From: Mobula hypostoma
Taxonomy: Eukaryota
Direction: 5' to 3'
Assembly: GCF_963921235.1 (NCBI RefSeq)
Contig: NC_086097.1
Location: forward strand, 99,016,001 to 99,080,000
DNA: 64,000 nucleotides
Shown here one piece after another: positions 40,101 through 64,000 of this stretch. The position numbers and the translations under genes were made by a program. The notes beneath the pieces are model-generated. The model worked only from the letters and a program-made list of their open reading frames with translations, did no database searches and had not been told where the DNA came from. The first letter of the stretch is position 1; every line of letters begins with the position of its first letter.

Positions 40101-41315
40101 TGATATGCTGATAGTAAAGTGTATCTCTGTGAGAGGGAGATAGTGAAGTGTCCTTCTGTGAGGGGGAGGTAGTGAAGTGTATCTCTGTGAGAGGGAGATA
40201 GTCAAGTTTACCTCCGTGAGAGGGAGACAGTGAAGTGTCCCTCTGTGAGGTGGAGATAGTGAAGTGTATCTCTGTGAGAGGGAGATAGTGAAGGGAATCT
40301 CTGTGAGGGGGAGATAGTGAAGCGAATCTCTGTGAGGGGGAGATAGTAAAGTGTATCTCTGTGAGAGGGAGATAGTGAAGTGTCCTTCTGTGAGGGGGAG
40401 GTAGTGAAGTGTATCTCTGTGAGACGGAGAGAGTGAATTGTACCTCTGTGTGGGGGAGATAGTGATGTGTACCTCTGTGTGGGGGAGATGGTGAAGGGAA
40501 TCTCTGTGAGGGGGAGATAGTGAAGTGAATCTCTGTGAGGGGGAGATAGTGAAGTGTATCTCTGTGAGGGGGAGATAGTGAAGTGTATCTCTCTGAGATG
40601 CAGATAGTGAAGTGTCCGTCTGTGAGGGGGAGGTAGTGAAGTGTATCTCTGTGAGACGGAGAGAGTGAATTGTACCTCTGTGTGGGGGAGATAGTGATGT
40701 GTATCTCTGTGTGGGGGAGATGGTGAAGGGAATCTCTGTGAGGGGGAGATAGTGAAGCGAATCTCTGTGAGGGGGAGATAGTGAAGTGAATCTCTGTGAG
40801 GGGGAGATAGTGAAGTGTACCTCTGTGAGTGGGAGATAGTGACTTGTCCCTTTGAGAGGGGGAGATAGTGAAGTGTACCACTGTGAGAGGGTGATAGTGA
40901 AGTGTACCTCTCTGAGGGGGAGATTTGAAGTGTATCTCTGTGAGAGGGAGATAGTGAAGTGTATCTCTGTGAGGGGGAGATAGTGAAGTGTACCTCTGTG
41001 ACAGGGAGGTAGTGACGTGTACCTCTGTGACAGGGAGGTAGTGACGTGTATTTCTGTGAGGGGGAGATAGTGACATTTCCCTCTGTGAGAAGGAGAAAGT
41101 GACGTATATCTCTGTGAGAGGGAGATAGTGAAGTGTACCTCTGTGATGTGGAGATAGTGAAGTATATCTCTGTGAGAGGGAGATAGTGAAGTGTATCTCC
41201 GTGAGGGGGAGATAGTGTAGTGTATCTCTGTGATGGGAGATAGCGAAGTGTCCCTCTGTGATGGGAGATAGTGAAGTGTACGTCTGTGAGAGCGAGATAG
41301 TGAAGTGTATGTCTA
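34150..41315. repeat. 29-bp minisatellite (GTGAAGTGTATCTCTGTGAGGGGGAGATA), ~7.1 kb
   Basis: Tandem units read directly; variant blocks are duplicated at kb scale. Confidence 0.97.
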
Positions 41316-41443
41316 TGCAAGTGATCCAGCCTTAACTGCCATGACCCCACCTGCATAAAAACTCCGGTTACTTTATCATAGCCTGTTCCTCTTTCCTATT
41401 ATCCCCTCTCCACTGATAAGAACTGGACCGGGGTCTGATTTAC

Positions 41444-41548
41444 CTTTTCCTCCTGAGTTGCCAACAGTTTCTCAAAAGCGTCATGCCATTTGATGAAGGA
41501 ATCCACAGTTTCCACAGTCGTTCCCAATTCACTAGATTTCAAGTAAAC
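41444..41548 (-). CDS. SPTBN5: Spectrin beta V coding exon (VYLKSSELGTTVETVDSFIKWHDAFEKLLATQEEK), phase 0/0
   Basis: ttcag| acceptor and |gtaaat donor; 105 nt; LG-x-x-V..V..I..H..FEK spectrin AB motif; too short for the ORF track. Confidence 0.9.
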
Positions 41549-41774
41549 CTGAAATAAGATCACAATGAATTAGAACTTCACTGTCTCTTTGAATATCCAA
41601 CTACAAGTAGACTCTTGCATTTCCAGCCACTTTCCCTTTGCCCTTGAGAATCCGGATCAACCTTCATAATGCCAATAGTGCTTGAGGTTAGAGGGTGACT
41701 TAAAGGAGGCTCCTGCAGAAAACTCCATCACCAAGTTAGTTCATCTGCCAGGAAGAAACAAATCAAAAGCTAAA

Positions 41775-43320
41775 TAAGACCATTAGATATAGGAGCAGAA
41801 TTAGGCCATTTGGCCCATCACGTCTGCTCTGCCATCTCATCATGGCCATTATCCATCTCAGCCGCAATTTTCTGCCTTCTCCCTGTATCCCTCCATGTCT
41901 GAGCAATCAAAAACCTATCAACTTCTGCCAGAAATATTTATAAAGAGTTGGCCTCCACAGCTTCCTGTCGCAAAGAATTCCACAGATTCACCATTGTCTG
42001 CCTAAAGGAATTCTGCCTCATCTCTCTTCCAAAAATTTGCCCCTCTATTCTGAGGCTGTGCCCCTCTCTCACCATAGGAAATGTCCTCTCCACATCCACT
42101 CTATCAAGACCCTTCACTATTCGATGGGTTTCAATTAGGTCACCCCTTATTCTCCAAATTCTAGTGAATACTGGCCCAGAGCCATCAAATGCTCTTCATA
42201 TGACAAGCCGTTTAATCCTGGAATCATTTTTGTGAACCTCCTTTGAACCTTCTCCAATTTCAGCACATTGTTTTTCAAATAAGGTGCCCAAAACTGCTCA
42301 CAATAGTCCTCCAGTGCCTTCTAAAGCACATCCGTGCTTTTGTATTCAAGTCCTCTTGAAATAAATGCTAACATTGCATTTGTCTTTTTCACCACAAATA
42401 TAACTGGCAAATTAATCTTTAGGGAATCCTGCATAAGGACTCCCAAGTCCTTTTGCACCTCGGTTTTATGAATTTTCTCTCCATTCAGAAAATAGTCAAC
42501 CTTTTCAAATTTCTAACAAAGTGCATGACCATACACTTCCCGACACTGTATTCCATCTGCCACTTTTTTGTCCATTCTCCTAATCTAAGTCCTTCTAGCC
42601 TCTCTGTCCTCAAAATTACTTGCCCTTCCACCTACCTTTGTATCATCTGCAAACTTTGCAACAAAGCCATCAACTCCATCATCCAAATCATTAACATATA
42701 ACGTAAAAAGCTCTCCCAACACAGATCCCTGTGGAATACCGCTAGTCATCGGCAGCCAACCAGAAAAGGCTCCCTTTATTCCCACTCTTTGCCTCCTGCC
42801 AATCAGCCAATACTCTAGTCATGCTAGTATCTTTTCAGTTATACCATGGGCTCTTAACTTGTTAAGCAGTCTCACATGTGGCACTTTGTTAAAGGCCTTC
42901 TGAAAATCCAAGTACACAACATCAACTGGTTCTCCTTTGTCTATTCTGCTTGTTATTTCCTCAAAGAATTCCAATGGATTTGTCAGGCAAGATTTCCCCT
43001 TGAGGAAACCATGCTGACTATGGCCTATTTTATCATGTGCCTCCAATTGACTCCAACATCTTCCCAACTACTGAGGTCAGACTAACTGGCCTATAATTTC
43101 CTTCCTTCTCCCTCTCTCCTGTCTTGAAGAGACTGCAAATTTCCAGTCTTTTGGAATCATTCCAGAATCTAGTGATTCTTGAAAAATCATTACTAATGCC
43201 TTCATGATCTCATCAGCCACCTCTTTCAGAACTCTGGGGTGTACACCATCTGGTCCAGGTGACTTATCTGCCTTCAGACCTTTCAGTTTCCCAAGAACCT
43301 TCTCTCTAGTTATGGCAACT
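41775..43320 (-). mobile_element. 5'-truncated CR1 (RT region plus 3' end), decayed
   Basis: SPGPDGVHPRVLKE, QHGFLKGKSCLTN, GIPQGSVLG and KFADDT in minus-strand ORFs; CR1 3' hairpin near 41790-41820. Confidence 0.92.
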
Positions 43321-43606
43321 TGCAGATACTGGAAATCTGAAAGAGAAGCACTCAGCAAACCAGACAGTAACTGTGGAGGGAAGAATGGGGATAGTGGCTC
43401 AGGTTGAGGACTTTGATCAGAATTTGGTGCAAATTTCATTGATCTTAATTAGTTAACCCCGTTTCTCTCTCCGTGAATGCTGCTTGCCATGCTGAGTGTT
43501 TACAGCATTCTCTATTTCCCTTTCAGACTTCCAGCAGCTGCAAGCACTTTTATCTTCAAACAAAACCAAACTGAAAAGGCTGGCCATCTGAAATGTGCCT
43601 GGTTAG

Positions 43607-44815
43607 AACATAGAAGAGTACGACACAGGAACAGGTCCTTAGGCCACAATGTTGTGCCAAACCAAATAAATTAGTAATCAAATGGCCAACTAAACTAATC
43701 CCTTATGTCTACACAATGTCCATATCCTTCCATTTTCCTCATATTCATGTGCCTATCTAAATGTCTCTTAAAAGTCCTTAATGTACGTATCTGTCTCTAC
43801 CACCACCCCAGCCAGCACATTCCAGGCACCCACCACTTCCTGTTTAAAAACATCTTACGCCTCACATCTCCATTGAATTTACTTCACCTCACCTTAAATG
43901 CACGGCCTCTGATATCAGGCATTTCTATCCTGGGAAAAAGATACTGTCTGTCTGCTCTGTCTATAGATTTCATAATCTAATAAACCTCTATTAGGTCTCC
44001 CCTCAGCCTCACCATTCCAGAGAAAGCAACACATGTTTGTCCAACCTCTCGTTATAACACATGCCCTCTAATCCAGGCAGCATCCTGGTAAACCTCTTCC
44101 ACACCTCTCCAAAGCCTCGACATCCTTCCTATAATGGGGTGACCAGAACTGTATGCAATGCTCCAGATGAGGCCTAACCAGAGTTTTGTAAAGCTGTAAC
44201 GTAACCTTCTGACTTTTGAACTTAGTGCCTTGACTTATAAAGGCAAGCATGCCATATGCCTTTTTAACCAGCCTACCACCCTGAGCAACACCACAAAGTG
44301 CTGGAGGAACTCAGCAGGCCAGGCAGCATCTATGGAAAAAAGTACAGGTGACGTTTCGGGCCGAAACCCTTCATCAGGGCTATCAACCTGTGTAGCCATT
44401 TGCAGGGAGCTATGAACCTGAACTCAAAAATCCCTCTGCTCATCAACACCATTAAGGTTCTTGCCCTTAACAATGTACTTCCTCTTTACATCTGACCTAC
44501 CAAGGTGCAACAGTTCACATTTGGCCAGGTTAAACTCCATCCGCCATTTCTCTGCCCATATCTACAAATGATCTATATCCCATTGTATTCTTTGCCAGTT
44601 TTCTACGCTATCCACACCACTAGTCTTCATATTATCCTCAAATTTACAAATCCACCTAACTACACTTCCATCCAGATTATTTACATATATCACAAAAGTC
44701 TCAGTACAGATCCCTGTGGAACACCACTGATCATAGACCCCCAGTCCCTTCGACTTCAATGAACAAGCCAGCTGCGAATACAAACAGCCAATCCAACACT
44801 GACCCCATGCATCTT
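43607..44815 (-). mobile_element. 5'-truncated CR1, a second subfamily, decayed
   Basis: LQLYKTLVRPHLEHCIQFWSPHYRKD; KFEDN at the position of FADD. Confidence 0.88.
44284..44379 (-). mobile_element. Short Penelope-type terminal-repeat insertion carrying a hammerhead core
   Basis: Minus strand CUGAUGA-A-GGGU(UUCG)GCCC-GAAAC-GUC at 44350-44377; flanked by a diverged duplication ctaccaccctg / ctatcaacctg; sits inside an older CR1. Confidence 0.65.
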
Positions 44816-45607
44816 AGTTGGAAACTGAGGTACTTCTCTTTGAGCTTCCATTGAGTTTCATTGAAACAGCGAGAGGTCAAAGACAGGGGTTCAAAGCCAC
44901 TGGAAGGTCAGGCTCATCTCTGTGGACTGAAAGGAAAAGTTCTAAAAGGCAGACACTCAGTTTGCACTTGGTATCTGCAATACAAAGAGCAAGTATTACA
45001 AGCACTGAATGCAGTGTCCTGCATTGGATTAAGATGAAGTGAATCACCTCTGTTTTCATTCGGATCCTACTCTTACACCTCACCCAGGCCTTTCACCCTC
45101 TCTCAGCAGCAACACAGCCACCTGTGAGCATTCTGTCTCTTTAGCTTTCCAGCCAGTCAGAGACATCCCTTTACTGCTCTTCACCTTCTCTGCTACTTAA
45201 AGCATATTGAATTCCTAACTCACATGGCAACTGGTTTGGAACAAGGGAAGTCCACAATGCTACAATGCTTCTGAAGACTGAGGTGTGGGAGGTACAGAGG
45301 AGAGCCTCATTACCCAAAGTATATCATTCTGGCAATACTTTCAACTGACACTCTTCCCAATAAAAGTACAAAATGCTTCTTGAACCTGTACTGTAAAGCG
45401 TTGTGCTAGCCACTACGCTACTGCGACTGTTCCTAACGCCCCAGATCGAAAATCTCTCAACCTTCATTAGCATAAAGCACAAAAACACAGCAGCAACAGA
45501 AATATTCATTGCCCCGGCTGGATCCCGGCACTCCAATGGTTAAACACACTATGACAGATGTCATTACAGCAAGCTTGCCTTGCACTAAGTGCTGGAGGGC
45601 ACAACCG

Positions 45608-47044
45608 TTAAAGAATATTGCTTAGTAAATGTGCTCTGACCTTGAGAAATAAGCTCATTGACTTCCCACAGGACACGTGCAGCACGTTGGGAATGCTGTG
45701 GCTACTCTCTGTGCATCCACCACCGAGACTGACGTTTGGCGGGCTACATGTGTTCATCCTGCGGTGATCTTCACCGCCGCAAGCACACTGCATGGGGAGA
45801 CTTCCCACCTTCTCCATCAGCTGTGGTTTGACTTCGGAAAGTGTGCTGACAAAGTTCTGGGGTGAGCTGCTGATCCTCCGCTCGGGCAGGGTACCGGGGG
45901 CACGCTGGGCATGGTTGCTCGGGGTCAGGCTGATGGAGACCACAGGGCCGCAGCTGTTGGGGAGGGAGGGACTGAAGATGCAGTTCAGGGAGCAGCAGGA
46001 GGGCTTGTCCGGCCAACCGGCCTCTTCCAGCTCAGGCTGCCTGCGTAGCATGAGCACCGTCTGAGAGAAGTGGGCTGGAGGACCCGTGGAGGCAATCACG
46101 CCCTGCGCCCGTGCGGACCTGCACAAGCTGGAGGCAGTGGGCGTGCCACCGACGGGGAGCTGGTGACTTGACGTGCGCACCACGGACAGCGGGGTGACGG
46201 TCAGTGAGGCCACGTGATGCCCTGGCACAGTCCGTGCTGCAGCCAACGTCACCTGCAGTCTGCTCACCCGGTGGGCTGGCTCAGGCGTGCCAGAGGACAG
46301 GCAGCGGAGGCCTGAAGTGCCAGGCTCCATCCGGCCTTTGTCACCTTTCACAACGGTCTTCGGCGCCGAAATAGATGGCAAGGAGAGTGAGGAGACTAAA
46401 GCCGAGGTGGCTTTAGACGCAGGCAGGATCTGGTGCACTGCCACGGTCTTGTTCCTCTTGAGGACGCCAGGTTTGCAGGCCTGGCTGACTGCCGCTCCCA
46501 CGGAGCCGTGGCTCTGAAACTGGGCAGGAGAACTGGGCCCTGGGGAGGGTGTCCTGCCAGAAGCACCTGCACACGGTGAGACCAAATGCTTGCTCTGGGT
46601 AGCACCCGTCACTTGGCCGGCGGAGAGCTCGGGTGCGGGTGGAAGCGGTGGAGCGAATGCCAGCGTGATATCCATTCTGGAGACACAGCGTGGTGCTGGC
46701 TCGGCTGTGGATGCTGTCCCCAGCATTGAGACCGAGCGTGCGGGGAGTACTGTTCCTGGGGGGGCCGGCCAAAGCTTCTTGCAGACCGTGAATCGCTGCA
46801 TTCTGTTGCTGTGCCTCGACATTTTAAACCTCTCATCACCTGGGACTGGCCCTTCGTCCATGAAGTCTGCAAGGACTGACAAGCGCACAAACTCCGCCAC
46901 TGACTGAACACACCCAGAAGTCAGACCACCAGCATCTTGAAGGATGCAATCCACCTCATTAACGGCAAGTGATCCAAACAGCCCCCTGTGTAGCCTACCA
47001 GCAGCAGGAGAAGCAAGCGAGTTAGAGAGGTTAAGACTCCAGTA
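45608..47044 (-). other. Intronic, non-repetitive, Ser/Pro/Ala-rich open frame (candidate unannotated alternative exon or nested ORF)
   Basis: Stop-to-stop frame 47044..45608 (includes ORF 45608..46954); visibly GC/CpG-richer than its flanks; in-phase donor AAG|gtcaga at 45641; no domain recognised. Confidence 0.5.
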
Positions 47045-47959
47045 CTAATCGGACTGCATCTGAACAGCACCTCCAGTGTGAGAGCCTGGCTGGCTCTGAG
47101 TGAGTGCTGATATCCCTTTGAGAGTCTGCTGGATCAAGCCCTCGTTTCTAGAGGAAGATTTTTCTCCTTTAAACACTTGAGCGGCACCAAGCTGTGAGGA
47201 AATTGGCACATTCCTCCACTTTTTAGTCCAGGAGCAAAAAAAAAAGGGAAAAGGATAAAGCTGAGAAAGTATAAGCTCACTGAAACCTTCCTGCCAAAAT
47301 GAAGTCACTTGCAAACAGCAGTACAGTTCTCACTTCAGACTGGTTGTGTGTCAATAGCCACATAGAACTGTTGCTAACTGTGGGATTATGTAGTTCTTTC
47401 TTGAAAACTTTGACTTCCTAATGCTCTGCGCCCTGTTAAATTAAATGCCTCACTAGTTCTATGAGCGATATTAAATTTGCACTGTTCCTGACCTCCTCCT
47501 TCAGCCAAAAAACTGTCACCAGGCATTACCCCTCCCTGAAAGATGAGCACGCGTCAAGGTGGTTGTTAAATCTGGGGGAGACATTTCTATCCTTTTAGTT
47601 TTTTGCTTGAATTAATTCCCCCTAAACTTTGTGCATATCTTGGGGATCTCCTCCAACCTGTTTCTAATGTACTCGGGAGTTGACAGTTCACAAAGATTCT
47701 TTTTCATTCCACGTGAAATGACTGCGAGTCTGTGAGACAACAGAAGCAGGTTTGAGGCCAAGCAACATTTTCAGGCCAGGAGAGCGGAGATAGCATTTCC
47801 TGTCCTGCCAACAAGTGGCACACCACGTAGCAGGGACACAACTCATTCCTAACAACGGAGGTGTACACTAAGAAAGTGGTGCTAATTATACGTGGACTGT
47901 TTGCACCCAAAGGCAACAATGCCAGGTGCACACGCCCAGAGGCGCAAAGGAATATAAAG

Positions 47960-48710
47960 GACAAAGATATACACAGAGTCAGTGATTGAATATACGTAAA
48001 TGGGGGAGAATATACCCAGGAGAGAGCAAAGGAAGATTATTAGGGGTGAGCACACATCTGGAACCACAATGTAATTAAATGAGGGAGTGAAAATAATGTA
48101 AATACATGGGGATCTGTACACACTAATGAATGAGCCTAACATTCAGAGACATGATGTAATGAATGAGGGAGTATTAACAGACAAAGATGGTGATGTAATG
48201 CAATTGAGCGCATACATCTAGAGACAGTGATGTAATATTTATGCACACAGACAGTGACACATGTTGGTATAACCCATATGAGTGCCCACAGAGAGACAAA
48301 TAATGCATGAATTCAAGAGACAATGATGCAAATTAATCAGTGCATACACCCAGAAGTGACAACAAACAAGGGGGAATGTATAGAGAAGGTAATGTAATAT
48401 AGATTGTATACATCCAGAAACACAATACAACATACATAATATGTACCTGGGGCTATGATGAAATATACAGGAGGGCGTGTATGCACTCAAAGGCACAATA
48501 TAACGCACGTGAGAGGGTTGTACATGCATCCAGAGCTTTTACATACTACAGATGGACATGGTGACACAGTGTGATGTAAGTGAGTTTGTGCACCCACAGT
48601 CAGGGAATGTATGCACTTAAAGACGTGATATAAGAAACATGATGATCTAATATCAGGGCTCTGTACATCCAGGCAAAGTGTTGTAATTGGAGTGAGTAAA
48701 GAGCATTGCA
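47960..48710. repeat. Highly decayed tandem repeat (~35-40 bp; cagagacagtgatgtaat-like core)
   Basis: Recurring acacagagtcagtgattgaat, cagagacatgatgtaat, tagagacagtgatgtaat, gacacagtgtgatgtaag. Confidence 0.6.
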
Positions 48711-51539
48711 ACTTAACCCACTATGTTAACCCTCAACCTGCATCCCTAAATTCCTTTTCCTCTCGGAGGTTTTTTGTAGCCTCCCAAATCTGTGCCTGCA
48801 TTATCCAGGTATTTGAAAAAAAAAGTGCACTTAATATCAGAAGATCCTGGTAATACTCAGAAAATCAGGCAGCATCTATGAAGTGAGGAAGAAAGTTAAT
48901 GTTACTTGCCTATGATCATTCATCAGAATTGGAAAAGTGAGAAAAGAAGGCCGTTTTAAACTGCAGAGAGAAAGAGCACAGAAGGAACTAAGAAAATGGT
49001 TGTGATAGAATCGAGACTAACACTGTCCATGTTGGGTATTTAATATTTCAGTAATATTGTAAATATATTGTTTGGTTAAGCATTTTTATTCATTTAAATA
49101 ATTTATTCTCAGTTTTATGTAAAAGTACATGCATGGCATAGGACATTATATCTCATGCGTGTGCCTCACTTAAAGTAACAACAATGTTCAACTCACATTC
49201 CCGGCTCCCTTCTTTTCCTTTCAGTTAGTTTAATGTTTTGGAGTTATTTTTTAAATGAACCTGAGACAACTACCTACCTGTTGAAGCACAGCAAGAAACA
49301 GTCAAGTTAAAAGAAAAGTGCAGCACCTATTTTTTCTTCGTAGTAGCACTTTTTTCACAAAAGGCGATTGTGTTTTAAAAAAGTCAGAAAATGGAAGAAT
49401 TCATGGGTTCATAAACAGTGTGCACTGGATGATAATAATCATTAAGAAAAGATCAGAAATGGCTAGCTACATCAGAAAGATTAATGTGTTTGATTACACA
49501 TCAGATAACTGGATATTGTATATTGAGCAGATTGAGAGGTATTTTCAAGCAAATGAAATAGCTACTGAGAACCGAGTGCCAACTTCACTGAGTGCATTAG
49601 ATTTAAGAGCATACCGTTTGCTTAAAAGTTTGACTGCTTCAACCAAACCAGCTGAAATATGCCTTGCCAATATTTTGAAAGTAATGCAGGAATCAAAACC
49701 ATTGTTGATTGCAGAATGCTTTAGGTTTCTTAAGTAGAATCAAAAAGAAGGGGAATCCATTACAGTATGCATGGCTGAATTGAAGAGATTGTCTGAACAT
49801 TATCAGTTTGGTAACTGTCTTAATGATGCACTGAGAAATCTTTTAGTTTGTGGAATCTCACAAGAAAGCATTCAAAAATGGCTCCTAGGTGAAGCACAAC
49901 TTACATTTGAAAGAGTGTCAATGGAAACAGCAGACGGAGATGCAACTGAATTGCAGTCAGGAATGAAAGTGAGTGTTAACAAAATTACAACGTCTAAACA
50001 GAAACCAGCCTGACTGAACAAATGGTATTACTGTTGTGGCAGGGACTCACATAGACCAGACTAATGCAGATTTAAAGGTGATACTTGCAGAAAATTAACA
50101 AAGTAGGACACATACAAAGAGTATGCTGGGCAGACAAAAATAAATGGACAGCACAGAGAAGAGAAAAAGCCAAAAAGTCAATATTCCAACTGATTCCAAC
50201 TAAGAATTTACACTGAAGAGAAAACTCCTGTGGGAATGATATTTGCAACGGCAAAACACAACAATCAATAAGCCACATTGAGCTTGTATGCGGTAAAAAT
50301 AGAATGACCAGCATTGCAGAGTCACGAGTGGCTGAGACAACTACAGCTTGATTGGAGATCCATCCACCATTTTCATGCCACATCCCCAGCGACAGAGTCA
50401 ACTGAAAGCAAATTAAGTAAGGTCCTGGATGATGCCATGGCAGTGTTCAATGATTGGAAAACTCATACATTTCAAGGGTAAAATAGTGTCAAATGAAAAT
50501 GCCACACCCAAGTTTTACAAAGCCCATCTGGTTCCTTGTACCATCTGTGATAAAGTGAATTAGATTGCATGGAGTCTGAAGGAATTCTTTCCAAGGTTGA
50601 GTGGAGCCCTGGGCAATACCAATGGTCCCAGTAGCCAAGAAGGATGGGTCTGTCAGGATCTGTTGTGATTTTAAGGTCACCATCATCCCAGTACTGAAAG
50701 TAGTTCAATACCATCTGCCCGAGATAGAGGATATCTTTGCAAACCCTTCTGGAGGAAAACACTTCAACAAAATGAACTTAGCTGAGACCTACCTACCGAT
50801 GGACATGGAAGAAGTGTTTCTCACCATAAACACTCACAGTAACAGGCTTATTTCTGAAGTAGCATCTGTATCTGCACTCTTGCAGAAAGCTATTGACCAG
50901 GTGCTGTAAGGCTACACAGGCACTTAGTGTTACCTGGATGACATCATTGTTACTAGTAAAGATGACGACTAACATCTCAAAAATGTCAAGACAGTGTTAA
51001 AAATATCTAAAGATTATGGGCTCAGAGCACATCACAACAAGAATGAATTATTTACACCAAGCATCATTTACTGTGGTAACACCATTGACACACAAGAATT
51101 ACACGTGTGCTGAGAAAATCCAAGGAGTGGTGGATGCCCAGAAGCTAAAGGATGTGTCACATCTGAAATCTTTTTTGGGATTCGTCAATTACTGTAACAG
51201 CTTCCTGCCAAATTTGGCTATGTGCTCTACCCCGTGAAATCATTACTACAGATCGGGAAGAAATGGCAATGGACAAAGCAGTATGAGGTGGCTTTCCAAA
51301 ATGTAAAGGAAATGGTGATGTCAGACACTGTATCCACTTTGTCTAGTGAAGCTTGCTAACACATCCAGAAGAAAGGTATCCAGAGCTGTCAGAACCACTT
51401 CCTGCAGTCTCAGAGTCAACTCCTAAAGCCACAACAGAGGAGGCCCCAGAAACAGAGACTGTTTCACAGCCACAAATCTCAACTGCCAAGCAGAGTCTTG
51501 TTAAGAAAGATGTTATCCCACAAGAGTAAGAAATCATCT

Positions 51540-51834
51540 GAGAGTCTGAGTGGGAGTGCCGAGAAAGACATTTTTGAAATTTTCGTTATTTTTTTTTCTC
51601 CAACGGCGTTCTGAGAGGCGGGACTGCGCAGGCGTGTGACGTCAAGCTGTGCAGCACGGCAGATTTAAAAGGAACAGAGCCTCAGAGAGCGGGCAGCGTA
51701 GTTTGCGGGCTGCGGAGTGAGCCGGGAGCAGAGTGAAGACTTAAGGGCTTCGGCTCAACGGGCTTAGGCGGAAACGGGCGGGGCGAGGAAGGTTTGGTAT
51801 TCATTTTCTGTTGTTATTTGAGGAGAGGGGCAGT
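51540..51834 (+). promoter_or_regulatory. CR1 5' UTR / putative internal promoter
   Basis: CpG-dense; TGCGCAGGCG (NRF1-like, 51625-51634); TGACGTCA (CRE, 51637-51644); TTTAAAA ~51664; GGGCGGGGC (GC box, 51776-51784). Confidence 0.55.
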
Positions 51835-52770
51835 ATGAGTGTGAGGGCAGTTTGCTGTACTCGGTGTCGGATGTGGGAGGCCCTGGAGTCTCCAAGCCTC
51901 CCGGACGTCTACATCTGCGCCAAGTGCATCGAGATGCAGCTCCTAAGGGACCGCGTTAGGGAACTGGAGCTGCAGCTCGATGACCTTCGTCTGGTCAGGG
52001 AGAGTGAGGAGTTGATAGAGAGGAGTTACAGGCAGGTGGTCACACCGGGGCCATGGGAGGCAAACAAGTGGGTCACGGTTAGGAGGGGGAAGGGGAAGAG
52101 TCAGGTAATAGAGAGTACCCCGGTGACTGTGCCCCTTAACAATAGGTACTCCTGTTTGAGTACTGTTGGGGGGGACGACTTACCCGGGGGAAGCGACAGT
52201 GGCCGTGCCTCTGGCACAGAGTCTGGCCCTGTAGCTCAGAAGGGTAGGGCAAGGAAGAGGAGGGCAGTTGTGATAGGGGACTCAATAGTATGGGGGTCAG
52301 ATAGGCGATTCTGTGGACGCAGTCCAGAGACCCGGATGGTACTTTGCCTCCCTGGTGCCATGGTCCGGGATATTTCTGATCGTGTCCAAGATATCCTGAA
52401 GTGGGAGGGTGAGGAGCCAGAGGTCGTGGTACATATAGGTACCAATGATATAGGTAGGAAAAGGGATGAGGTCCTGAAAGGAGAATATAGGGAGCTGGGG
52501 AGGGAGTTGAGAAAAAGGACCGCAAAGGTAGTAATCTCGGGATTACTGCCTGTGCCACGCGACAGTGAGAGTAGGAATGCGATAAGGTGGAGGATAAATG
52601 CGTGGCTGAGGGATTGGAGCAGGGTGCAGGGATTCAAGTTTTTGGATCATTGGGACCTCTTTTGGTGCAGGTGTGACCTGTACAAAAAGGACAGGTTACA
52701 CTTGAATCCTAGGGGGACCAATATCCTGGCAGGGAGATTAGCGAGGGCTACGGAGGTGACTTTAAACTAG
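51835..52770 (+). CDS. CR1 ORF1p (311 aa): N-terminal Cys-rich finger, coiled coil, SGNH esterase
   Basis: CTRC...CAKC; LRDRVRELELQLDDL heptads; SGNH blocks GDS, HIGTND, DRLHLN; frame intact from ATG 51835. Confidence 0.9.
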   Translation: MSVRAVCCTRCRMWEALESPSLPDVYICAKCIEMQLLRDRVRELELQLDDLRLVRESEELIERSYRQVVTPGPWEANKWVTVRRGKGKSQVIESTPVTVPLNNRYSCLSTVGGDDLPGGSDSGRASGTESGPVAQKGRARKRRAVVIGDSIVWGSDRRFCGRSPETRMVLCLPGAMVRDISDRVQDILKWEGEEPEVVVHIGTNDIGRKRDEVLKGEYRELGRELRKRTAKVVISGLLPVPRDSESRNAIRWRINAWLRDWSRVQGFKFLDHWDLFWCRCDLYKKDRLHLNPRGTNILAGRLARATEVTLN

Positions 52771-55700
52771 AATGGTTGGGGGGTGGGAATCAAATTAAAG
52801 AGGCTAGGCGTGAGGAGGTTAGTTCACAACAGGGGGATGGGAACCGGTGCAGAGAGACAGAGGGGTGTAAAGTGAGGGTAGAAGCAAAAAGTACTAAGGA
52901 GAAAGGTAAAAGTGGCAGGCCGACAAATCCAGGGCAAGCATTAAAAAGGGCCACTTTTCAACATAATTGTATAAGGGCTAAGAGAATTGTAAAAGAGCGC
53001 CTGAAGGCTTTGTGTGTCAATGCAAGGAGCATTCGTAATAAGGTGGATGAATTGAAAGTGCAGATTGTTATTAATGATTATGATATAGTTGGGATCACAG
53101 AGACATGGCTCCAGGGTGACCAAGGATGGGAGCTCAACGTTCAGGGATATTCAATATTCAGGAGGGATAGACATGAAGGAAGGGGAGGTGAGGTGGCGTT
53201 GCTGGTTAAAGAAGAGATTAACGCAATAGAAAGGAAGGACATAAGCCGGGAAGATGTGGAATCAATATGGGTAGAGCTGCGTAACACTAAGGGGCAGCAG
53301 ACGCTGGTGGGAGTTGTGTACAGGCCACCTAACAGTAGTAGTGAGGTCGGAGATGGTATTAAACAGGAAATTAGAAATGTGTGCAATAAAGGAACAGCAG
53401 TTATAATGGGTGACTTCAATCTACATGTAGATTGGATGAACCAAATTGGTAAAGGTGCTGAGGAAGAGGATTTCTTGGAATGTATGCGGGATGGTTTTTT
53501 GAACCAACATGTCGAGGAACCAACTAGAGAGCAGGCTATTCTGGACTGGGTTTTGAGCAATGAGGAAGGGTTAATTAGCAATCTTGTCGTGAGAGGCCCC
53601 TTGGGTAAGAGTGACCATAATATGGTGGAATTCTTCATTAAGATGGAGAGTGACATAGTTAATTCAGAAACAAAGGTTCTGAACTTAAAGAGGGGTAACT
53701 TTGAAGGTATGAGATGTGAATTAGCTAAGATAGACTGGCAAATGACACTTAGACGGTGGATATGCAATGGCAAGCATTTAAAGGTTGCATGGATGAACTA
53801 CAACAATTGTTCATCCCAGTTTGGCAAAAGAATGAATCAAGGAAGGTAGTGCACCCGTGGCTGACAAGAGAAATTAGGGATAGTATCAATTCCAAAGAAG
53901 AAGCATACAAATTAGCCAGAGAAAGTGGCTCACCTGAGGACTGGGAGAAATTCAGAGTTCAGCAGAGGAGGACAAAGGGCTTAATTAGGAAGGGGAGAAA
54001 AGATTATGAGAGAAAACTGGCAGGGAACATAAAAACTGACTGTAAAAGCTTTTATAGATATGTAAAAAGGAAAAGACTGGTAAAGACAAATGTAGGTCCC
54101 CTACAGACAGAAACAGGTGAATTGATTATGGGGAGCAAGGACATGGCAGACCAATTGAATAATTACTTTGGTTCTGTCTTCACTAAGGAGGACATAAATA
54201 ATCTTCCAGAAATAGTAGGGGACAGAGGGTCCAGTGAGATGGAGGAACTGAGCGAAATACATGTTAGTAGGGAAGTGGTGTTAGGTAAATTGAAGGGATT
54301 GAAGGCAGATAAATCCCCAGGGCCAGATGGTCTGCATCCTAGAGTGCTTAAGGAAGTAGCCCAAGAAATAGAGGATGCATTAGTGATAATTAACTCGTTA
54401 GATTCTGGACTAGTTCCTGAGGATTGGAGGGTGGCTAATGTAACCCCACTTTTTAAAAAAGGAGGGAGAGAGAAACCTGTGGAATTATAGACCGGTTAGC
54501 CTAACGTCGGTGGTGGGGAAACTGCTGGAGTCAGTTATCAAAGATGTGATAACAGCACATTTGGAAAGCGGTGAAATGATCGGACAAAGTCAGCATGGAT
54601 TTGTGAAAGGAAAATCATGTCTGACGAATCTCATAGAATTTTTTGAGGATGTAACTAGTAGAGTGGATAGGGGAGAACCAGTGGATGTGGTATATTTGGA
54701 TTTTCAAAAGGCTTTTGACAAGATCCCACACAGGAGATTAGTGTGCAAACTTAAAGTACACGGTATTGGGGGTAAGGTATTGATGTGGATGGAGAATTGG
54801 TTAGCGGACAGGAAGCAAAGAGTGGGAATTAACGGGACCTTTTCAGAATGGCAGGCAGTGACTAGTGGGGTACCGCAAGGCTCAGTGCTGGGACCCCAGT
54901 TGTTTACAATATATATTAATGACTTGGATGAGGGAATTAAATGCAGCATCTCCAAGTTTGCGGATGACACGAAGCTAGGCAGCAGTGTTAGCTGTGAGGA
55001 GGATGCTAAGAGGATGCAGAGTGACTTGGATAGGTTGGGTGAGTGGGCAAATTCATGGCAGATGCAATTTAATGTGGATAAATGTGAAGTTATCCACTTT
55101 GGTGGCAAAAATAGGAAAACAGATTATTATCTGAATGGTGGCCGATTAGGAAAAGGGGAGGTGCAACGAGACCTGGGTGACATTATACACCAGTCATTGA
55201 AAGTGGGCATGCAGGTACAGCAGACGGTGAAAAAGGCGAATGGTATGCTGGCATTTATAGTGAGAGGATTCGAGTACAGGAGCAGGGAGGTACTACTGCA
55301 GTTGTACAAGGCCTTGGTGAGACCACACCTGGAGTATTGTGTGCAGTTTTGGTCCCCTAATCTGAGGAAAGACATCCTTGCCATAGAGGGAGTATAAAGA
55401 AGGTTCACCAGATTGATTCCTGGGATGGCAGGACTTTCATATGAAGAAAGACTGGATGAACTAGGCTTGTACTCGTTGGAATTTAGAAGATTGAGGGGGG
55501 ATCTGATTGAAACGTATAAAATCCTAAAGGGATTGGACAGGCTAGATGCAGGAAGATTGTTCCCGATGTTGGGGAAGTCCAGAACAAGGGGTCGCAGTTT
55601 GAGGATAAAGGGGATGCCTTTTAGGACTGAGATTAGGAAAAACTTCTTCACACAGAGAGTGGTGAATCTGTGGAATTCTCTGCCACAGGAAACAGTTGCG

Positions 55701-55796
55701 GCCAGTTCATTGGCTATATTTAAGAGGGAGTTAGATATGGCCCTTGTGGCTACAGGGATCAGGGGGTATGGAGGGAAGGCTGGGGCGGGGTTCTGA
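52761..55796 (+). pseudogene. CR1 ORF2 (APE endonuclease + reverse transcriptase), disrupted
   Basis: NARSI, GITETW, YRPP, GDFN, SDH (APE); QHGF, LDFQKAFD, PQGSVLGP, FADD (RT); frameshifts near 53750 and 54480; stop at 55395-55397. Confidence 0.92.
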
Positions 55797-56352
55797 GTTG
55801 GATGATCAGCCATGATCATAATAAATGGCGGTGCAGGCTCGAAGGGCCGAATGGCCTACTCCTGCACCTATTTTCTATGTTTCTACAGGTAATAAATCTT
55901 TAGGCCTGAATGGGATAATTTAAAATTGACTATGCTGTGGATGTCTATACAGTAGTTGTGTTATATAGAACACTGAATGTACCACCACGTCATATGCGTG
56001 CTTAAAGTAACAACAAAATTCGACTCGCATTCCCAGCTCTCTTGTTTTCCATTCAATTGGTTCAATGGTTTGGAGTTACAAAACATTACAGTCCAGGTCC
56101 CAGTTGCTAAGATTGTCCAAGTGACACAATTGCTTTTATTGTCATCAAAGAGGAACAGGTTAATGAGAGCTCAGGTACCTGAAGAAGATGTAAAAAGAGA
56201 AACCAAATGAAATAACATGTTGGAGCTGAGCAATGAAGAACACACAGCTCTTGGAAATCCAAACTAAAGGGGAAGCAGGAAATACTCAGTAGATTAGAAG
56301 GAGGGAGGGAGAGAGAAACAGAGAGACAGATATGGGAGGGGAAGAGGGAGTG

Positions 56353-56353
<1 letters not shown>

Positions 56354-56400
<47 letters not shown>
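56354..56400. repeat. (GA)n microsatellite
   Basis: Read directly. Confidence 0.97.
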
Positions 56401-56403
<3 letters not shown>

Positions 56404-56959
56404 AGAGATTGATTGAGATTTAAAGTTAGAGGTCTATGACCTTACATCAAAACTGGCCAGTCAAACAAGAATGAATTATTTGTTATTGTTAAGTTGCAAG
56501 GACTGCAATTCACTTATGTGGAAAATGACATGGTGCTTTCAGACTTTAACTAGAACAGTATAGGATGCAAAAGACTACACGGTCATGCAGGACTGGGAGG
56601 AAAATTGAAGTAGCAGGTGACTGGAATGTCAGGATCATCCTGCTATCTTGCAAACTGAATGAAAGAGGCCATCTGTTTTCTCTAATATAGAAGGAACCAC
56701 ATTTGTGAGCACCTAAAGTAGCAAAGAAGAAAAGCAAGTGGACTGCTGTTTTGCTTGGAAGGGCTGTTCAAATCCCAAATGAGGCAAGAGGGCAGACAAT
56801 GCCGAAAGAGAGGTGACCAGTGTTTGAACTTTTCCAGTAGCGATTCCAAAATTATTCTGATTAACATTATTAATAACATCCTTGATGAATTTATTCTTGC
56901 ACCATGCACTTTAATATGCACAGAGTCTTTGACCGAGCTAGGCTGTAAGCTATAGCATC

Positions 56960-57640
56960 CTGCTCTAAAACCTCTCCACCATTGTCTGACTAGATCCATT
57001 CTTTTCTATTGAGTTACAGAAAAAGATTTACTAACCATGGCTAGTCCTCTCACCATTCCTGATGCTGGTCCATTCTAGCTTCCTGCTATTTCTCATCTCA
57101 ATACTACCAATCAGCAATGTCATCAGCAAACATGGTACCAGTCTCCATATAATTGCTGATGACATCCATTTGTACTTCGACAGGAACCTCTTCATTGTTT
57201 GTAAATTTTCTAGCATCCATTTCTACTGAATGAAGAGGTATTCTCTTCAACATTGTGAAGACCTAAGCTATTGTCTTCACTTCCAATTCCTTTTCCTCAG
57301 ACCAACTCCATCTCTTTGTGGCATCAGTTTGAAATGGAATAAACTGTTTCCAACCTTCATATTTTGACTCTGAGTTTACGTACAAACCATATATCTGTGC
57401 CATCTCTAATAACCCCTATTTTCACCTCGTGCTGCTTCTGATCTTCTGCTGACAAAACCCTCATTCAACTTTATTACTTCCGTTTTTATGCAATGGTGGC
57501 AGGCTTCTTTCACGTTGCCATCCTTAAACCCAAAGCCATATGAAACTTCCCTCATCTTGCATGAAATCCCTTCACTTTTGTCCATCGTTTATTGTCCCAG
57601 CTCTCCCAATCCTTGTAACTTTCTCCAGTCTCATCAGCTT
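56960..57640 (+). mobile_element. Ancient L2-like RT fragment
   Basis: Decayed LLFLISILPISNVISKHG...ADDIHLY around 57080-57180. Confidence 0.55.
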
Positions 57641-58404
57641 TTCAGTCACCTGTTTAAATTTTAACCACTTGTAGAAAGCTGAATTTAGTTTCCTTAGCAA
57701 TGGTCATAAAGACATTGAATCCTACAGGACAGAAAAGGCCCTTTGTCCAATTGAGTATGGGTCAACTATCACACATCCATTTATATTAATCCCATTTTAG
57801 TCTCCCCACTTTCCATAAGACCACAAGGTATGGGAGCAGAATTGGGCGATTTGGCCCATTGAATCCTCTCCGATTCCCATTAAGTCCCTCCAGATTCTAC
57901 CACTCATTGCTCATTAGGTGCAATTTACAGTGGCCACTTAGCCAATTACCAGCTCAGACATCTTTGAGATGAGGGATAAAACCAGAGTAGCCAGAGGAAA
58001 TCCATGCAGTCACAGAGAGAGTCTGCAAACTCCACACAGGTAGTACCCAAAGTCAGGAGCAAAAGGGGTTACGGTTTTGACTGCTTTGCCTCTGGAAGCT
58101 ATGGTCACAGGTTCTGGAATTTCCTTCCTAAATCTCTCCACTTTTCCATTAAGATGCTGCTTAAGATCTTTTTGTTTGACCAAGCTTTTGATCATCCACT
58201 CTGAAATCATACGTGAATTGGCCTCAAATTTTGTTTGGTAATGTCCCTGTGAAATGTCCTAGAGGTCTTAAGCAGCATCTTGCTACAATATTTCAGCAGC
58301 TATTGTTCTAGATAGCCAAACAAATGTAGGGGGTTAGATGTAAAAATGTAATTTAAACGAAGGAATGAATATTCCAAGAGGTGCAGAGACAATAACATAG
58401 TATA

Positions 58405-58716
58405 AACAGCAGGCATCTGTTAGTCTTGCAAGACCTTGGATCTGCCCCTGGAAAGTCTTCGCTCTCCAGGGCGCAGGCCTGGGCAAGGTTGTATGGAAGA
58501 CAGGCAGTTGCCCATGCAGCAAGTCAACCCTCTCCATGACACTGATGTTGTCCAAGGGAAGGGCATTAGGATCCATACAGCTTGGCACCGGTGTCGTCGC
58601 AGAGCAATGTGTGATTAAGTGCCTTGCTCAAAGACACGACACGTTGCCTCGGCTAGGCTCGAACTCACGACCTTCAGATCGCTAGTCCAATGCCTTAACA
58701 ACTTGGCCATGTGCCC
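58405..58716 (-). mobile_element. tRNA-derived SINE
   Basis: Minus-strand head ggcacatggccaagttgttaagg...gagttcgagcc with Pol III A-box-like and B-box motifs, followed by a non-tRNA body. Confidence 0.75.
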
Positions 58717-58851
58717 ACACTAACAGCAGGAGAAGATAGAAAATTCATTTATCTAATAAGCGTAGTTGTAATATTTGAAATATTGGGGAATATTAATAGC
58801 CTGGGTTGGCTATTTGGAAGTTTGGTTGATCGCCAAGCTCGGCAAAATGTT

Positions 58852-58893
58852 TGCAGACGTTTCAGCTCCAATCGAGAAGCTATCTTCAGTGCA
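58852..58893 (-). ncRNA. Minimal type-I hammerhead ribozyme motif (Penelope-like-element type)
   Basis: Minus strand: UGCA-CUGAAGA-U-AGCUUC(ucgauu)GGAGCU-GAAAC-GUC-UGCA; full catalytic core, 6-bp stem II, 4-bp stem I, vestigial stem III. Confidence 0.7.
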
Positions 58894-59689
58894 GCAGTCA
58901 GGAGAGCTGTTCTTCAGATGAAAATTAAAGGACACTCTGATTGTTTAATCACTCTATCTGTTTAAAGTTTTGATCACCATTCAAAGATGACCTTGAAGGG
59001 AGACACACAATAGTGTTCATGATTCTGACTCAGACAGCCAACAGTTCCAGTCTCAGTTCACACTGCAGCACCCAACCCCAACTTAGGCTGACACTATGGA
59101 ACAATAACTTGGGATGAGACAGTGATGATAAAATAACATAAAAGGACCCCTGGCACAATATTGGGAAGTTCTTTCTGCCCAAAAACACCAACCAGTTCAG
59201 AGTCAATTCAATATCACATCGCTATCTCAGTGGTGTATTTCCATCTGCAAATTAGCAGCAGCATTTCATACAATACGAGAGGACTGACATTTCTGAAGTA
59301 CTTCTCAAACTGCGAGGAGGATCGTAATGGACGTAAGTGAAAACTGTGTCATGGAGTCATAGTGTAGGATCTTTGGGTCATCCAGTCCATACTGATGACA
59401 GTGCCCACCCAGCCAATCCCAGTTTCCATATCCTGCTAAGCCCTGCCCCTCCATGGATCAATGCAAGGGCTTCATAAGTGATACTATTGAACCTGCCTCG
59501 ACCACTTCCTTGGGCTGTGCTTCCTTTTCTGATGAGGTGAGGGAATGTTTCTTGAGTGTCTGGAAGGGCAGCATAGCTCCGCAAGGGACAACTGAAGCCA
59601 AAATCACAACCCTGGGCTCGCTGCCTGGGCACACTTGGTGGTGAAGGGACAAATCCTACATCTTGCCTTGCCATTATGATCTCACCCAC

Positions 59690-59839
59690 CTCCTGTGAAT
59701 TCATGATTGTTTCCATGTGCGCCGCGTCTCTGAAGAAAATCTGCTCCTGGTGCATCCTCTCCAGCCAGCCCTTCTTCAGCTCCCACTGACTGTACAGATC
59801 CGATCTCTCCTTCTGCAGACTATCAACTTTGTCTTTGAC
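59690..59839 (-). CDS. SPTBN5: Spectrin beta V coding exon (1st in window; VKDKVDSLQK...TIMNSQE), phase 0/0
   Basis: ctctag| acceptor and |gtgggt donor; 150 nt; spectrin-repeat helix C/A pattern (W at ELKKGWLE, IFFRD). Confidence 0.88.
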
Positions 59840-60371
59840 CTAGAGGACAACACAAGGGGTGGATTAGACCCGGACACAGGGGACTGCTGGACAAAGAAAG
59901 CAGAGGCAGGAGTGGTCATCTGATGCATGTCCCTGCTTTACCATTAAGCCAACCGATCTTTTACCTCAGCATCACTTTCCAGCATTAGCCACACGCCTGG
60001 ACTCCAGCTGAGGAGCCATCCCTCCGAGAGCAAAGGTAGAGACAGAGTGGGAGTGGGCAAGGCGAAGGGTAGAGATGGAAATGGAAAGGCAGAAGGGAGA
60101 AACGGAGGTAAAGAGTGGAGAAGGAAGGCAACGAGGGTCAGGAGAGGGGTTGTGGACAGACGGATGGTGGTGCAAGGGAACAGTCATAGAGTAAATAATA
60201 ATGATGATTGCTTATTCAGATAGAGCACTTCTCACATAGGCAACGTAACTTTACAATGGGATAAAGTTCAGAGGGTGGACAGACTGATGAGGGGGGTGGA
60301 AGAGATGGGAGGACAGACCCAGAGTGGATGGATGATGAAGGAGCAAGGACAGACTGGGAGGAGTGGAGGTG

Positions 60372-63300
60372 CTGGACGGAGGAAGTGAGACAGGTGAAGG
60401 TATGCAGCGCGTGGACAGGAGGAGAATGAGACAGGTGAAGGTATGCAGCACGTGGACAGGAGGAGAATGAGACAGGTGAAGGTATGCAGCGCGTGGACAG
60501 GAGGAGAATGAGACAGGTGAAGGTATACACCGCGTGGACAGGAGGAGAATGAGACAGGTGAAGGTATGCAGTCCGTGCACAGAGGAACTAAGTCAGGTGA
60601 AGGTATGCAGCGCGTGGACAGGAGGAGAATGAGACAGGTGAAGGTATGCAGCGCGTGGACAGGAGGAGAATGAGACAGGTGAAGGTATGCAGCGCATGGA
60701 CAGAGGAAGTGAGACAGGTGAAGGTATACACCGCGTGGACAGGAGGAGAATGAGACAGGTGAAGGTATGCAGTCCGTGCACAGAGGAACTAAGTCAGGTG
60801 AAGGTATGCAGCGCGTGGACAGGAGGAGAATGAGACAGGTGAAGGTATGCAGTGCGTGGACAGAGGAAGTGAGACAGGTGAAGGTATGCAGCGCGTGGAC
60901 AGGGGAGTGAGACAGGTGAAGGTATCACGCGTGGACAGGAGGAGAATGAGACAGGTGAAGGTATGCAGGCGTGGACAGGAGGAGAATGAGACAGGTGAAG
61001 GTATGCAGCGCATGGACAGAGGAAGTGAGACAGGTGAAGGTATACACCGCGTGGACAGGAGGAGAATGAGACAGGTGAAGGTATGCAGTCCGTGCACAGA
61101 GGAACTAAGTCAGGTGAAGGTATGCAGCGCGTGGACAGGAGGAGAATGAGACAGGTGAAGGTATGCAGTGCGTGGACAGAGGAAGTGAGACAGGTGAAGG
61201 TATGCAGCGCGTGGACAGAGGGAGTGAGACAGGTGAAGGTATGCAGCGCGTGGACAGAGGAAGTGAGACAGGTGAAGGTATGCAGCACGTGGACAGAGAA
61301 AGTGAGACAGGTGAAGGTATGCAGCGCCTGGAGAGGAGGAGAATGAGACAGGTGAAGATATGCAGCGTGTGGACAGAGGGAGTGAGACAGGTGAAGGTAT
61401 GCAGAGCGTGGACAGTGGAAGTGAGACAGGTGAAGGTATGCAGCGCATGGACAGGAGGAGAATGAGACAGGTGAAGGTATACAGCGCGTGAACAGGAGGA
61501 GAATGAGACAGGTGAAGGTATGCAGCGCGTGGACAGAGGAAGTGAGACAGGTGAAGGTATGCAGCGCGTGGACAGAGGAAGTGAGACAGGTGAAGGTATG
61601 CAGCGCGTGGACAAAAGAAGTGAGACAGGTGAAGGTATACACCGCATGGACAGGAGGAGAATGAGACAGGTGAAGGTATGCAGCGCGTGGACAGGAGGAG
61701 AATGAGACAGGTGAAGGTATGCAGCACGTGGACAGAGGAAGTGAGACAGGTGAAGGTATGCAGCGCGTGGACAGAGGGAGTGAGACAGGTGAAGGTATGC
61801 AGCGCGTGGACAGAGGGAGTGAGACAGGTGAAGGTATGCAGCGCATGGACAGAGGGAGTGAGACAGGTGAAGGTATGCAGCGTGTGGACAGGAGGAGAAT
61901 AAGACAGGTGAAGGTATGCAGCGCGTGCACAGAGGAACTAAGTCAGGTGAAGGTATGCAGCGCGTGGACAGGAGGAGAATGAGACAGGTGAAGGTATGCA
62001 GCGCGTGTACAGAGGGAGTGAGACAGGTGAAGGTATGCAGCGCGTGGACAGAGGGAGTGAGACAGGTGAAGGTATACAGCGCGTGGACAGAGAAAGTGAG
62101 ACAGGTGAAGGTATGCAACGCGTGGACAGAGGAAGTGAGACAGGTGAAGGTATGCAGCGCGTGGACAGAGGGAGTGAGACAGGTGAAGGTATGCAGCGCG
62201 TGGACAGAGGAGGTGAGACAGGTGAAGGTATGCAGCGCGTGGACAGAGGGAGTGAGACAGGTGAAGGTATGCAGCGCGTGCACAGAGGAAGTGAGGCAGG
62301 TGAAGGTATTCAGCGCGTGGACAGGAGGAGAATGAGACAGGTGAAGGTATGCAGCGTGTGGACAGAGGGAGTGAGACAGGTGAAGGTATGCAGTGCGTGG
62401 ACAGAGGAAGTGAGACAGGTGAAGGTATGCAGCGCTTGGACAGAAGAAGTGAGACAGGTGAAGGTATACACCGCGTGGACTGGAGGAGAATGAGACAGGT
62501 GAAGGTATGCAGCGAGTGGACGGGAGGAGAATGAGACAGGTGAAGGTATGCAGTGCATGGACAGAGGAAGTGAGACAGGTGAAGGTATGCAGCGCGTGGA
62601 CAGGAGGAGAATGAGACAGGTGAAGGTATGCAGCGCGTGGACAGGAGGAGAATTTGACAGGTGAAGGTATGCAGTGCGTGGACAGAGGAAGTGAGACAGG
62701 TGAAGGTATACACCGCGTGGACAGGAGAAGAATGAGACAGGTGAAGGTATGCAGCGCGTGGACAGGAGGAGAATGAGACAGGTGAAGGTATGCAGCGCGT
62801 GCACAGAGGAAGTGAGTCAGGTGATGGTATGCAGCGCATGGACAGGAGGAGAATGAGACAGGTGAAAGGTATGCAGCGCGTGGACAGGAGCAGAATGAGA
62901 CAGGTGAAGGTATGCAGCGCGTGGACAGGAGGAGAATTAGACAGCTGAAGGTATGCAGCGAGTGGACAGAGGAAGTGAGACAGGTGAAGGTATGCAGCGC
63001 GTGGACAGAGGAAGTGAGACAGGTGAAGGTATGCAGCGCATGGAAAGAGGAAGTGAGGCAGGTGAAGGTATGCAGCGCGTGGACAGGGGAAGTGAGACAG
63101 GTGAAGGTATGCAGCGCGTGGACAGAGTAAGTGAGACAGGTGAAGGTATACAGCACGTGGACGGAGGAAGTGAGACAGGTGAAGGTATGCAGCACGTGGA
63201 CAGGAGGAGAATGAGACAGGTGAAGGTATACACTGCGTGGACAGGAGGAGAATGAGACAGGTGAAGGTATGCAGCGCGTGGACAGGAGGAGAATGAGACA

Positions 63301-64000
63301 GGTGAAGGTATGTAGCGCGTGGACAGAGGAAGTGAGACAGGTGAAGGTATGCAGCGCGTGTACAGAGGGAGAGAGACAGGTGAAGGTATGCAGCGCGTAG
63401 ACAGAGGGAGTGAGACAGGTGAAGGTATGCAGCGCGTGGACAGAGGGAGTGAGACAGGTGAAGGTATGCAACGCGTGGACAGAGGAAGTGAGACAGGTGT
63501 AGGTATGCAGCGCGTGGACAGGAGTAGACTGAGACAGGTGAAGGTATGCAGCGCGTGCACAGAGGAAGTGAGACAGGTGAAGGTATGCAGCGCTTGGACA
63601 GGAGGAGAATGAGACAGGTGAAGGTATGCAGCACGTGGACAGAGGAAGTGAGACAGTTGAAGGAATGCAGCGCGTGGACAGAGGAACTGAGACAGGTGAA
63701 GCTTGGCAGCGCGTGGACAGGAGGAGAATGAGACAGGTGAAGGTATGCAGCACGTGGACAGAGGAAGTGAGACAGGTGAACGTATGCAGCGCGTGGACAG
63801 GAGGAGAATGAGACAGGTGAAGGTATGCAGCGCGTGGACAGAGGAAGTGAGACAGGTGAAGGTATGCAGCACGTGGACAGAGAAAGTGAGACAGGTGAAG
63901 GTATGCAGCGCCTGGAGAGGAGGAGAATGAGACAGGTGAAGATATGCAGCGTGTGGACAGAGGGAGTGAGACAGGTGAAGGTATGCAGAGCGTGGACAGT
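60372..64000. repeat. 39/41-bp minisatellite (GAGACAGGTGAAGGTATGCAGCGCGTGGACAG + AGGAAGT or GAGGAGAAT); runs off the window end
   Basis: Two interspersed unit lengths read directly. Confidence 0.97.

Follow-up and report, generated by a model that had tools for sequence, protein, structure and literature searches.

The complete minimal hammerhead ribozyme motif described here, which lies in an intron of a spectrin-repeat gene, is very probably an inactive fossil left by a Penelope-like retroelement (PLE) whose catalytic core would have survived by chance. The inactivity that we infer is likely because the motif belongs to a 145-base scrap of an element with several hundred copies, no partner copy lies close by, and in three relatives a core letter is changed. 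Throughout the text, the window is the whole 64-kb stretch of DNA that was analysed.

The motif and its intron

Read on the minus strand from 58893 to 58852, the sequence is a complete minimal type-I hammerhead, both by direct reading and with a type-I descriptor (Table 1). Stem I has four pairs (UGCA/UGCA) and is followed by CUGAAGA and a single bulged U; stem II has six pairs, one of them G-U, and a loop of 6 nt; and in the 3′ part, GAAAC-GUC, the palindrome ACGU stands where stem III would be, with no room for stem III itself. The core letters C3, U4, G5, A6, G8, A9, G12, A13, A14, A15.1, U16.1 and H17 are all present, so that the first-pass annotation, which had described paired stems I and II, every core letter, and ACGU for stem III, was exact on this strand. 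The predicted cut would fall between 58856 and 58855. Stem II is computed to be well formed within a 220-nt context (pair probabilities 0.94–0.98), and stem I, at 4 bp, exceeds that of most copies of the family by one pair.

No other match of the type-I descriptor is found in the window with both strands scanned. When the window was simulated 300 times with a first-order Markov model, no simulation gave a strict match, with a stem I of at least 4 bp and a stem II of at least 6 bp, and 8/300 gave a relaxed one. The bare core pattern, for its part, is unremarkable, with 4 matches in the window against 1.54 expected. On these simulations the motif is not a product of chance; a comparison with shuffled sequence had been proposed with the original description.

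Table 1. Coordinates of the motif, of the element that carries it and of the host gene.
Feature	Positions	Strand	Basis
Minimal type-I hammerhead	58852..58893	-	Sequence, descriptor scan, chance simulation
5′-truncated 3′ end of putative Penelope/Poseidon type (pseudo-LTR and tail), 145 nt	58774..58918	-	Alignment to copies
ORF remnant, first 37 codons, beginning at stem II	58774..58883	-	Match to P0004 N-terminus
Optional PLE tail, ~40 nt (border approximate)	58774..58811	-	3′-end clusters, inverted pairs
Upstream exon, spectrin-repeat gene	59690..59839	-	Splice signals AG/GT, open frame, deep X9 contig; no Pfam match alone
Host intron, 18.1 kb	41549..59689	-	X9 contig passes from exon 59690 directly to exon 41548
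Downstream exon, spectrin-repeat gene	41444..41548	-	Splice signals; Pfam Spectrin E=5e-4, below gathering score

The host gene was recognized from seven candidate exons, three of which match Pfam Spectrin, one above its gathering score. In a contig of run X9 with a depth of 811 the upstream exon continues straight into the downstream exon, the join lying at a loose end, and from this join it follows that the motif lies 796 nt inside the intron and in the sense direction; the X9 join and the splice borders thus agree with the earlier placement, some 0.8 kb after the exon and sense to spectrin. The X9 contigs of the intron itself have depths of 3–5. One of them (58843–59222, depth 4.6, 0 differences) reaches 13 letters past the predicted cut, too few for it to be called bridging.

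The element and its family

A genome search with 231 nt around the motif returned at least 461 candidate copies, 40 of which were scored and gave 47 matches. The copies have their 3′ end in common, their 5′ ends are ragged, and the candidates fall in number on walking upstream, to 331 and then to the only 46 that reach 1.2 kb upstream. The longer copies, to which the window copy is about 80% identical, carry broken reading frames in which a reverse transcriptase (RT) core is followed by a GIY-YIG-type domain. In Pfam, RVT_1 is matched by all three RT pieces (E=2e-5 to 3e-3) and GIY-YIG by 3 of the 6 pieces covering that domain (E about 0.01), in both cases below gathering scores. One protein piece finds 14 longer homologues that contain RVT_1 or are named as GIY-YIG proteins, the best of them 50–61% identical; P0004, a full-length relative of 824 aa, has 57% identity across the RT piece and matches RVT_1 with E=3e-11. 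No Cys-rich linker between RT and endonuclease (EN) was seen by eye in the 208-aa L026 linker piece or in P0004, and this absence separates the family from Neptune. No full-length element of the family was found, every long copy seen being broken.

The RT followed by a C-terminal GIY-YIG, the 5′ truncation, the inverted 5′ copy and the tail on one side are the marks of the EN+ Penelope/Poseidon elements, and the last three, with a tail of 30–40 nt, have been published as such in the portions consulted of PMC8557442 and PMC3846280. The aligned 3′ ends form two clusters, at 61–79 nt (31/90) and 107–119 nt (55/90) from the ATG in stem II, and in 24 of 26 inverted pairs the tail is carried by one member only. 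On domain order, tail and homologues, the motif is to be typed as part of the pseudo-LTR of a Penelope/Poseidon-type PLE, a classification made at the level of sequence. The proposal that it is a PLE relic is thereby borne out by the repeat family, its remains of RT and GIY-YIG, its constant 3′ end and its one-sided tail, and its flanks do match a hammerhead-bearing repeat, with the 461 or more candidates given above.

The 5′ border of the window copy is placed only to within about 10 nt, and no target-site duplication of 6–12 nt was found for this copy. Its 37-codon remnant retains 13 of 34 identities with the N-terminus of P0004 (pairwise E=0.002). At the two start places an ATG is present in 71/84 and 58/84 sister copies, and the window copy has neither.

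How the copy would have arrived

The ends of the family agree with the internal-initiation model of the anole Poseidon, in which reverse transcription has been shown in vitro to begin on uncut RNA, 111–118 nt into the ORF (PMC11167929). Among 35 ORF-selected copies, counted with one copy serving as the ruler and four duplicate loci excluded, none ends at the cut site, 28 cross it and 7 stop short. The element protein would have begun to reverse-transcribe its own uncut RNA from an internal point some 110 nt past the start codon and would have halted after 145 nt, leaving a truncated copy in the spectrin intron before organisms A, B, C, E and F diverged. From then on the copy would have been transcribed passively with the spectrin pre-mRNA; stems I and II would fold, stem III could not form alone, no partner would be met, and the motif would depart, uncut, with the spliced intron.

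The resemblance to the Poseidon element PAc of Anolis carolinensis (Frangieh et al. 2024, PMC11167929) extends to an RT followed by a C-terminal GIY-YIG, an ORF that runs from stem II, an optional tail, copies whose ends lie some 110 nt inside the ORF (111–118 in PAc), and a template RNA that would likewise be uncut. PAc, however, is intact and has been tested in vitro, whereas all copies seen of the present family are broken, and the distance from cut site to ATG position is 28 nt here against 26 in PAc.

A run-off product ending at the transcription start was also considered for the window copy and not adopted. Its 5′ end lies 28 nt before C3 and the 5′ ends of the family are spread: in a biased sample, those of tailed copies fall 9/41 in the interval −45..+20 (three of them from one tandem), and 11, 11 and 10 in farther bins. 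The family also includes short fold-back insertions (e.g., L046, L050, L017 and L018) in which the turn comes just upstream of the hammerhead.

An intact core among decaying copies

If the core were under selection, its letters should be better kept than those around them. Two sets of sister copies were compared, 38 chosen via the upstream ORF and 51 others chosen by likeness to the window copy. In the 38 ORF-selected copies, 52/418 cells (12%) of the non-CpG core and 70/722 (10%) of the flank hold a letter other than the commonest, a difference with p=0.16; for CpG letters the share is 39%. The core, in other words, decays as fast as its flanks, from which some four complete copies are to be expected by chance; independent decay predicts 0.85% of complete copies, about 4 of 461. 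Those observed were 0/38 in the ORF-selected set and 3/51 in the window-like set, or 3/89 overall, and a 34-letter pattern of the intact core occurs at 8 places in the genome, that of the window included, and at 0 with the control. A complete motif is kept by about 1–2% of the copies, that of the window included.

Nor, judged by its letters, is the window copy younger than its sisters: it counts 11 departures, and the median over 54 copies is 14 (range 7–26). Position 10.1 is G in 76/89 sister copies; a compensatory change at 10.1–11.1 was looked for and rejected, the pairs A-C (8), A-U (3) and A-G (1) giving no covariation. Read from these comparisons, the intact core is what the neutral decay of several hundred copies would yield.

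Could the motif still cut?

The most serious of the alternatives to a silent fossil, although an improbable one, is that the motif still cuts a small share of the pre-mRNAs, without any selected role, either in trans, with a family transcript or a second pre-mRNA, or aided by a protein. The motif has a complete core and forms stems I and II; the spliced-looking run X9 includes, in one contig (record 29), a sister copy with 4 differences over 90 nt; and PLE hammerheads can cleave in such circumstances: according to the excerpts consulted, a single schistosome minimal hammerhead (min-HHR) gave no cleavage in vitro and its dimers cleaved weakly (PMC4209133), while the anole Poseidon hammerhead cleaved only with the protein of the element (PMC11167929).

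Against this, the encounter would be an unfavourable one. No second copy of the family that could act as partner was found in the window or in the 20 kb upstream, and two 42-mers folded as a double hammerhead reach a computed −19.3 kcal/mol where the two monomer ensembles reach −23.7, so that the active dimer, which depends on three 4-bp helices, would lie 4.4 kcal/mol uphill in nearest-neighbour energy, a figure without tertiary or protein terms. A dimer in cis with the core of a second family at 44350–44377 of the same intron was rejected, as every cross pairing offers 0 bp of stem I. Moreover, only 3 of the 89 sampled sister copies are complete, the family looks dead, all the long copies seen being broken, and the anole RNA-seq, in the account of PMC11167929 consulted, has no ends at the cut site. 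The suggestion that the motif might cut the intron is therefore not supported, since no partner copy was found in the window or the 20 kb upstream, the dimer is computed to be unfavourable, the core is as neutral decay predicts, and A6 is changed in three orthologues.

A narrower form of the same idea is more doubtful still: that in this lineage the fossil, with its full core and a gained, self-complementary 4-bp stem I, pairs in trans or is folded by a protein and in this way cuts part of the spectrin pre-mRNA. If this were true, scattered single intronic PLE hammerheads would be live cut sites for trans dimers. A demonstration that single intronic copies cleave in trans or with protein would matter, since the genomes of fish, amphibians and reptiles hold thousands of them.

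Orthologous sites and the question of function

If, instead, the motif had been domesticated as an intronic ribozyme shaping the processing of the spectrin pre-mRNA, like the hammerheads of amniote RECK and C10orf118, its core should be kept among relatives. It is in sense, 796 nt from the donor site, with a complete core, and the amniote cases offer a precedent: as far as the material consulted goes (PMC6155905, PMC3088659), they too are type-I hammerheads in introns of protein-coding genes. Those, however, have been kept from species to species, and at least one of them shows robust self-cleavage, whereas the motif of the window lacks stem III and any recognisable tertiary loops, shows no covariation at 10.1–11.1, and has a changed core in relatives only 6–8% apart.

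The comparison was made with 7 contig runs of the 24 listed, organism D being left out, and differences were taken from contig tables by depth and by distance to the contig end, and not from printed sequence. Contigs linking the insertion to unique intron sequence were found in organisms B, C, E and F, and in organism G (X16) no orthologous contig was found. Organism C differs from the window in 69/1085 letters and organism E in 82/1079. The state of A6 (58886) was read in C, E and F, the contig of B, a close relative, giving no reading at the motif, and it is changed in all three of these more distant relatives, to G in C and E and to C in F; the free position 7 also differs in orthologues. 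In the tables the A6 difference lies 37 letters in from the end of the aligned piece, with depths that fit (7.78 alone in F, 14.2 plus 17.3 in C), and it is assigned to the orthologous contigs because paralogous pieces stop by 58893. By subtraction, the 44-nt stretch holds 2–4 differences in C and 2–6 in E, against 6–8% over the intron as a whole.

Since these contigs carry the insertion with A6 changed, the insertion predates these species and the core is not conserved; changes of A6 lower hammerhead activity, according to the part consulted of PMC3088659. Conservation at the orthologous site, which the first-pass annotation had named as a check, thus fails at a core position in C, E and F, and by this change a domesticated ribozyme, of very small probability in any case, is already largely refuted.

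As for the hammerhead consensus being matched by accident in unique intron sequence, for which one might cite the lack of any Rfam hammerhead at E≤10 in 56000–62000 and a folding z of −0.08 for the 66-nt stretch at the motif (no better than shuffles), both expected of a motif without stem III, its probability is close to nil, as it is refuted by the simulations, none of which gave a strict match, and by the repeat family, whose modal state is this motif, placed where PLE hammerheads sit.

Relation to known systems

The preferred reading, that of a silent PLE fossil, makes of the motif something real but, in all likelihood, ordinary, of a kind already published. In the portion consulted of Cervera and De la Pena (2014, PMC4209133), the min-HHRs of metazoan PLE pseudo-LTRs are type I, with a short stem I (4–5 bp), a long stem II, a bulged base before stem II, a palindromic 15.2–16.2 and no stem III, and are mostly single motifs from truncated PLEs; the window motif shares all of this, its bulge following A9, but has A-U at 10.1–11.1 in the place of their G-C, which is highly conserved though not obligatory. 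The same portion gives counts in the thousands for the genomes of fish and frogs, and cartilaginous fish are not named in it as hosts.

The non-LTR retrozymes of animals (bioRxiv 10.64898/2026.07.22.740005; see also PMC7229834) likewise have, according to the former, a type-I hammerhead from a PLE pseudo-LTR and scattered monomers. Many of these monomers are intronic, 44% in X. tropicalis, and hammerhead-bearing retrozymes, often intronic, are reported in a cartilaginous fish, again in the part consulted (bioRxiv 10.64898/2026.07.22.740005). The window copy, unlike a retrozyme with its tandem units, is single in the window and the 20 kb upstream; this, and the long ORF-bearing copies of the family, make it a truncated PLE and not a tandem retrozyme unit. 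A literature search, with most subscription papers and Repbase outside its scope, found no publication on this PLE family or locus. The case is of use in that it provides a clean worked example of how a complete-looking intronic hammerhead can exist without function.

The family does have one retrozyme-like arrangement, at L069:1750-2130 (G000:C1:43329254-43329626), where three 120-nt units stand in direct tandem; two of them keep the core letters and ACGU, and one is complete. For a dimer in cis, this tandem would be a more promising candidate than the single copy of the window.

Neighbouring repeats and distant relatives

Other repeats accompany the PLE piece in the spectrin gene. The core at 44350–44377 (minus strand), in sense in the same intron, belongs to a second and far commoner hammerhead family with at least 1,716 exact cores genome-wide; it lies within a LINE-like stretch and has lost stem I. 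A tRNA-derived SINE-like repeat, with a weak tRNA match and very high contig depth, begins some 60 nt after the PLE piece (~58715–58420, minus strand), and long minisatellite arrays with units of about 30 nt occupy introns of the gene at 60400–64000 and ~34100–41400.

With regard to the element protein, the closest named relatives of the piece L026:1792-2415 (minus strand), among its homologues P0004, P0008 and P0009, include trematode proteins at 50–61% identity, which equals or exceeds the 50% of a named shark protein. As far as sequence comparison goes, this closeness could reflect either slow evolution or horizontal transfer.
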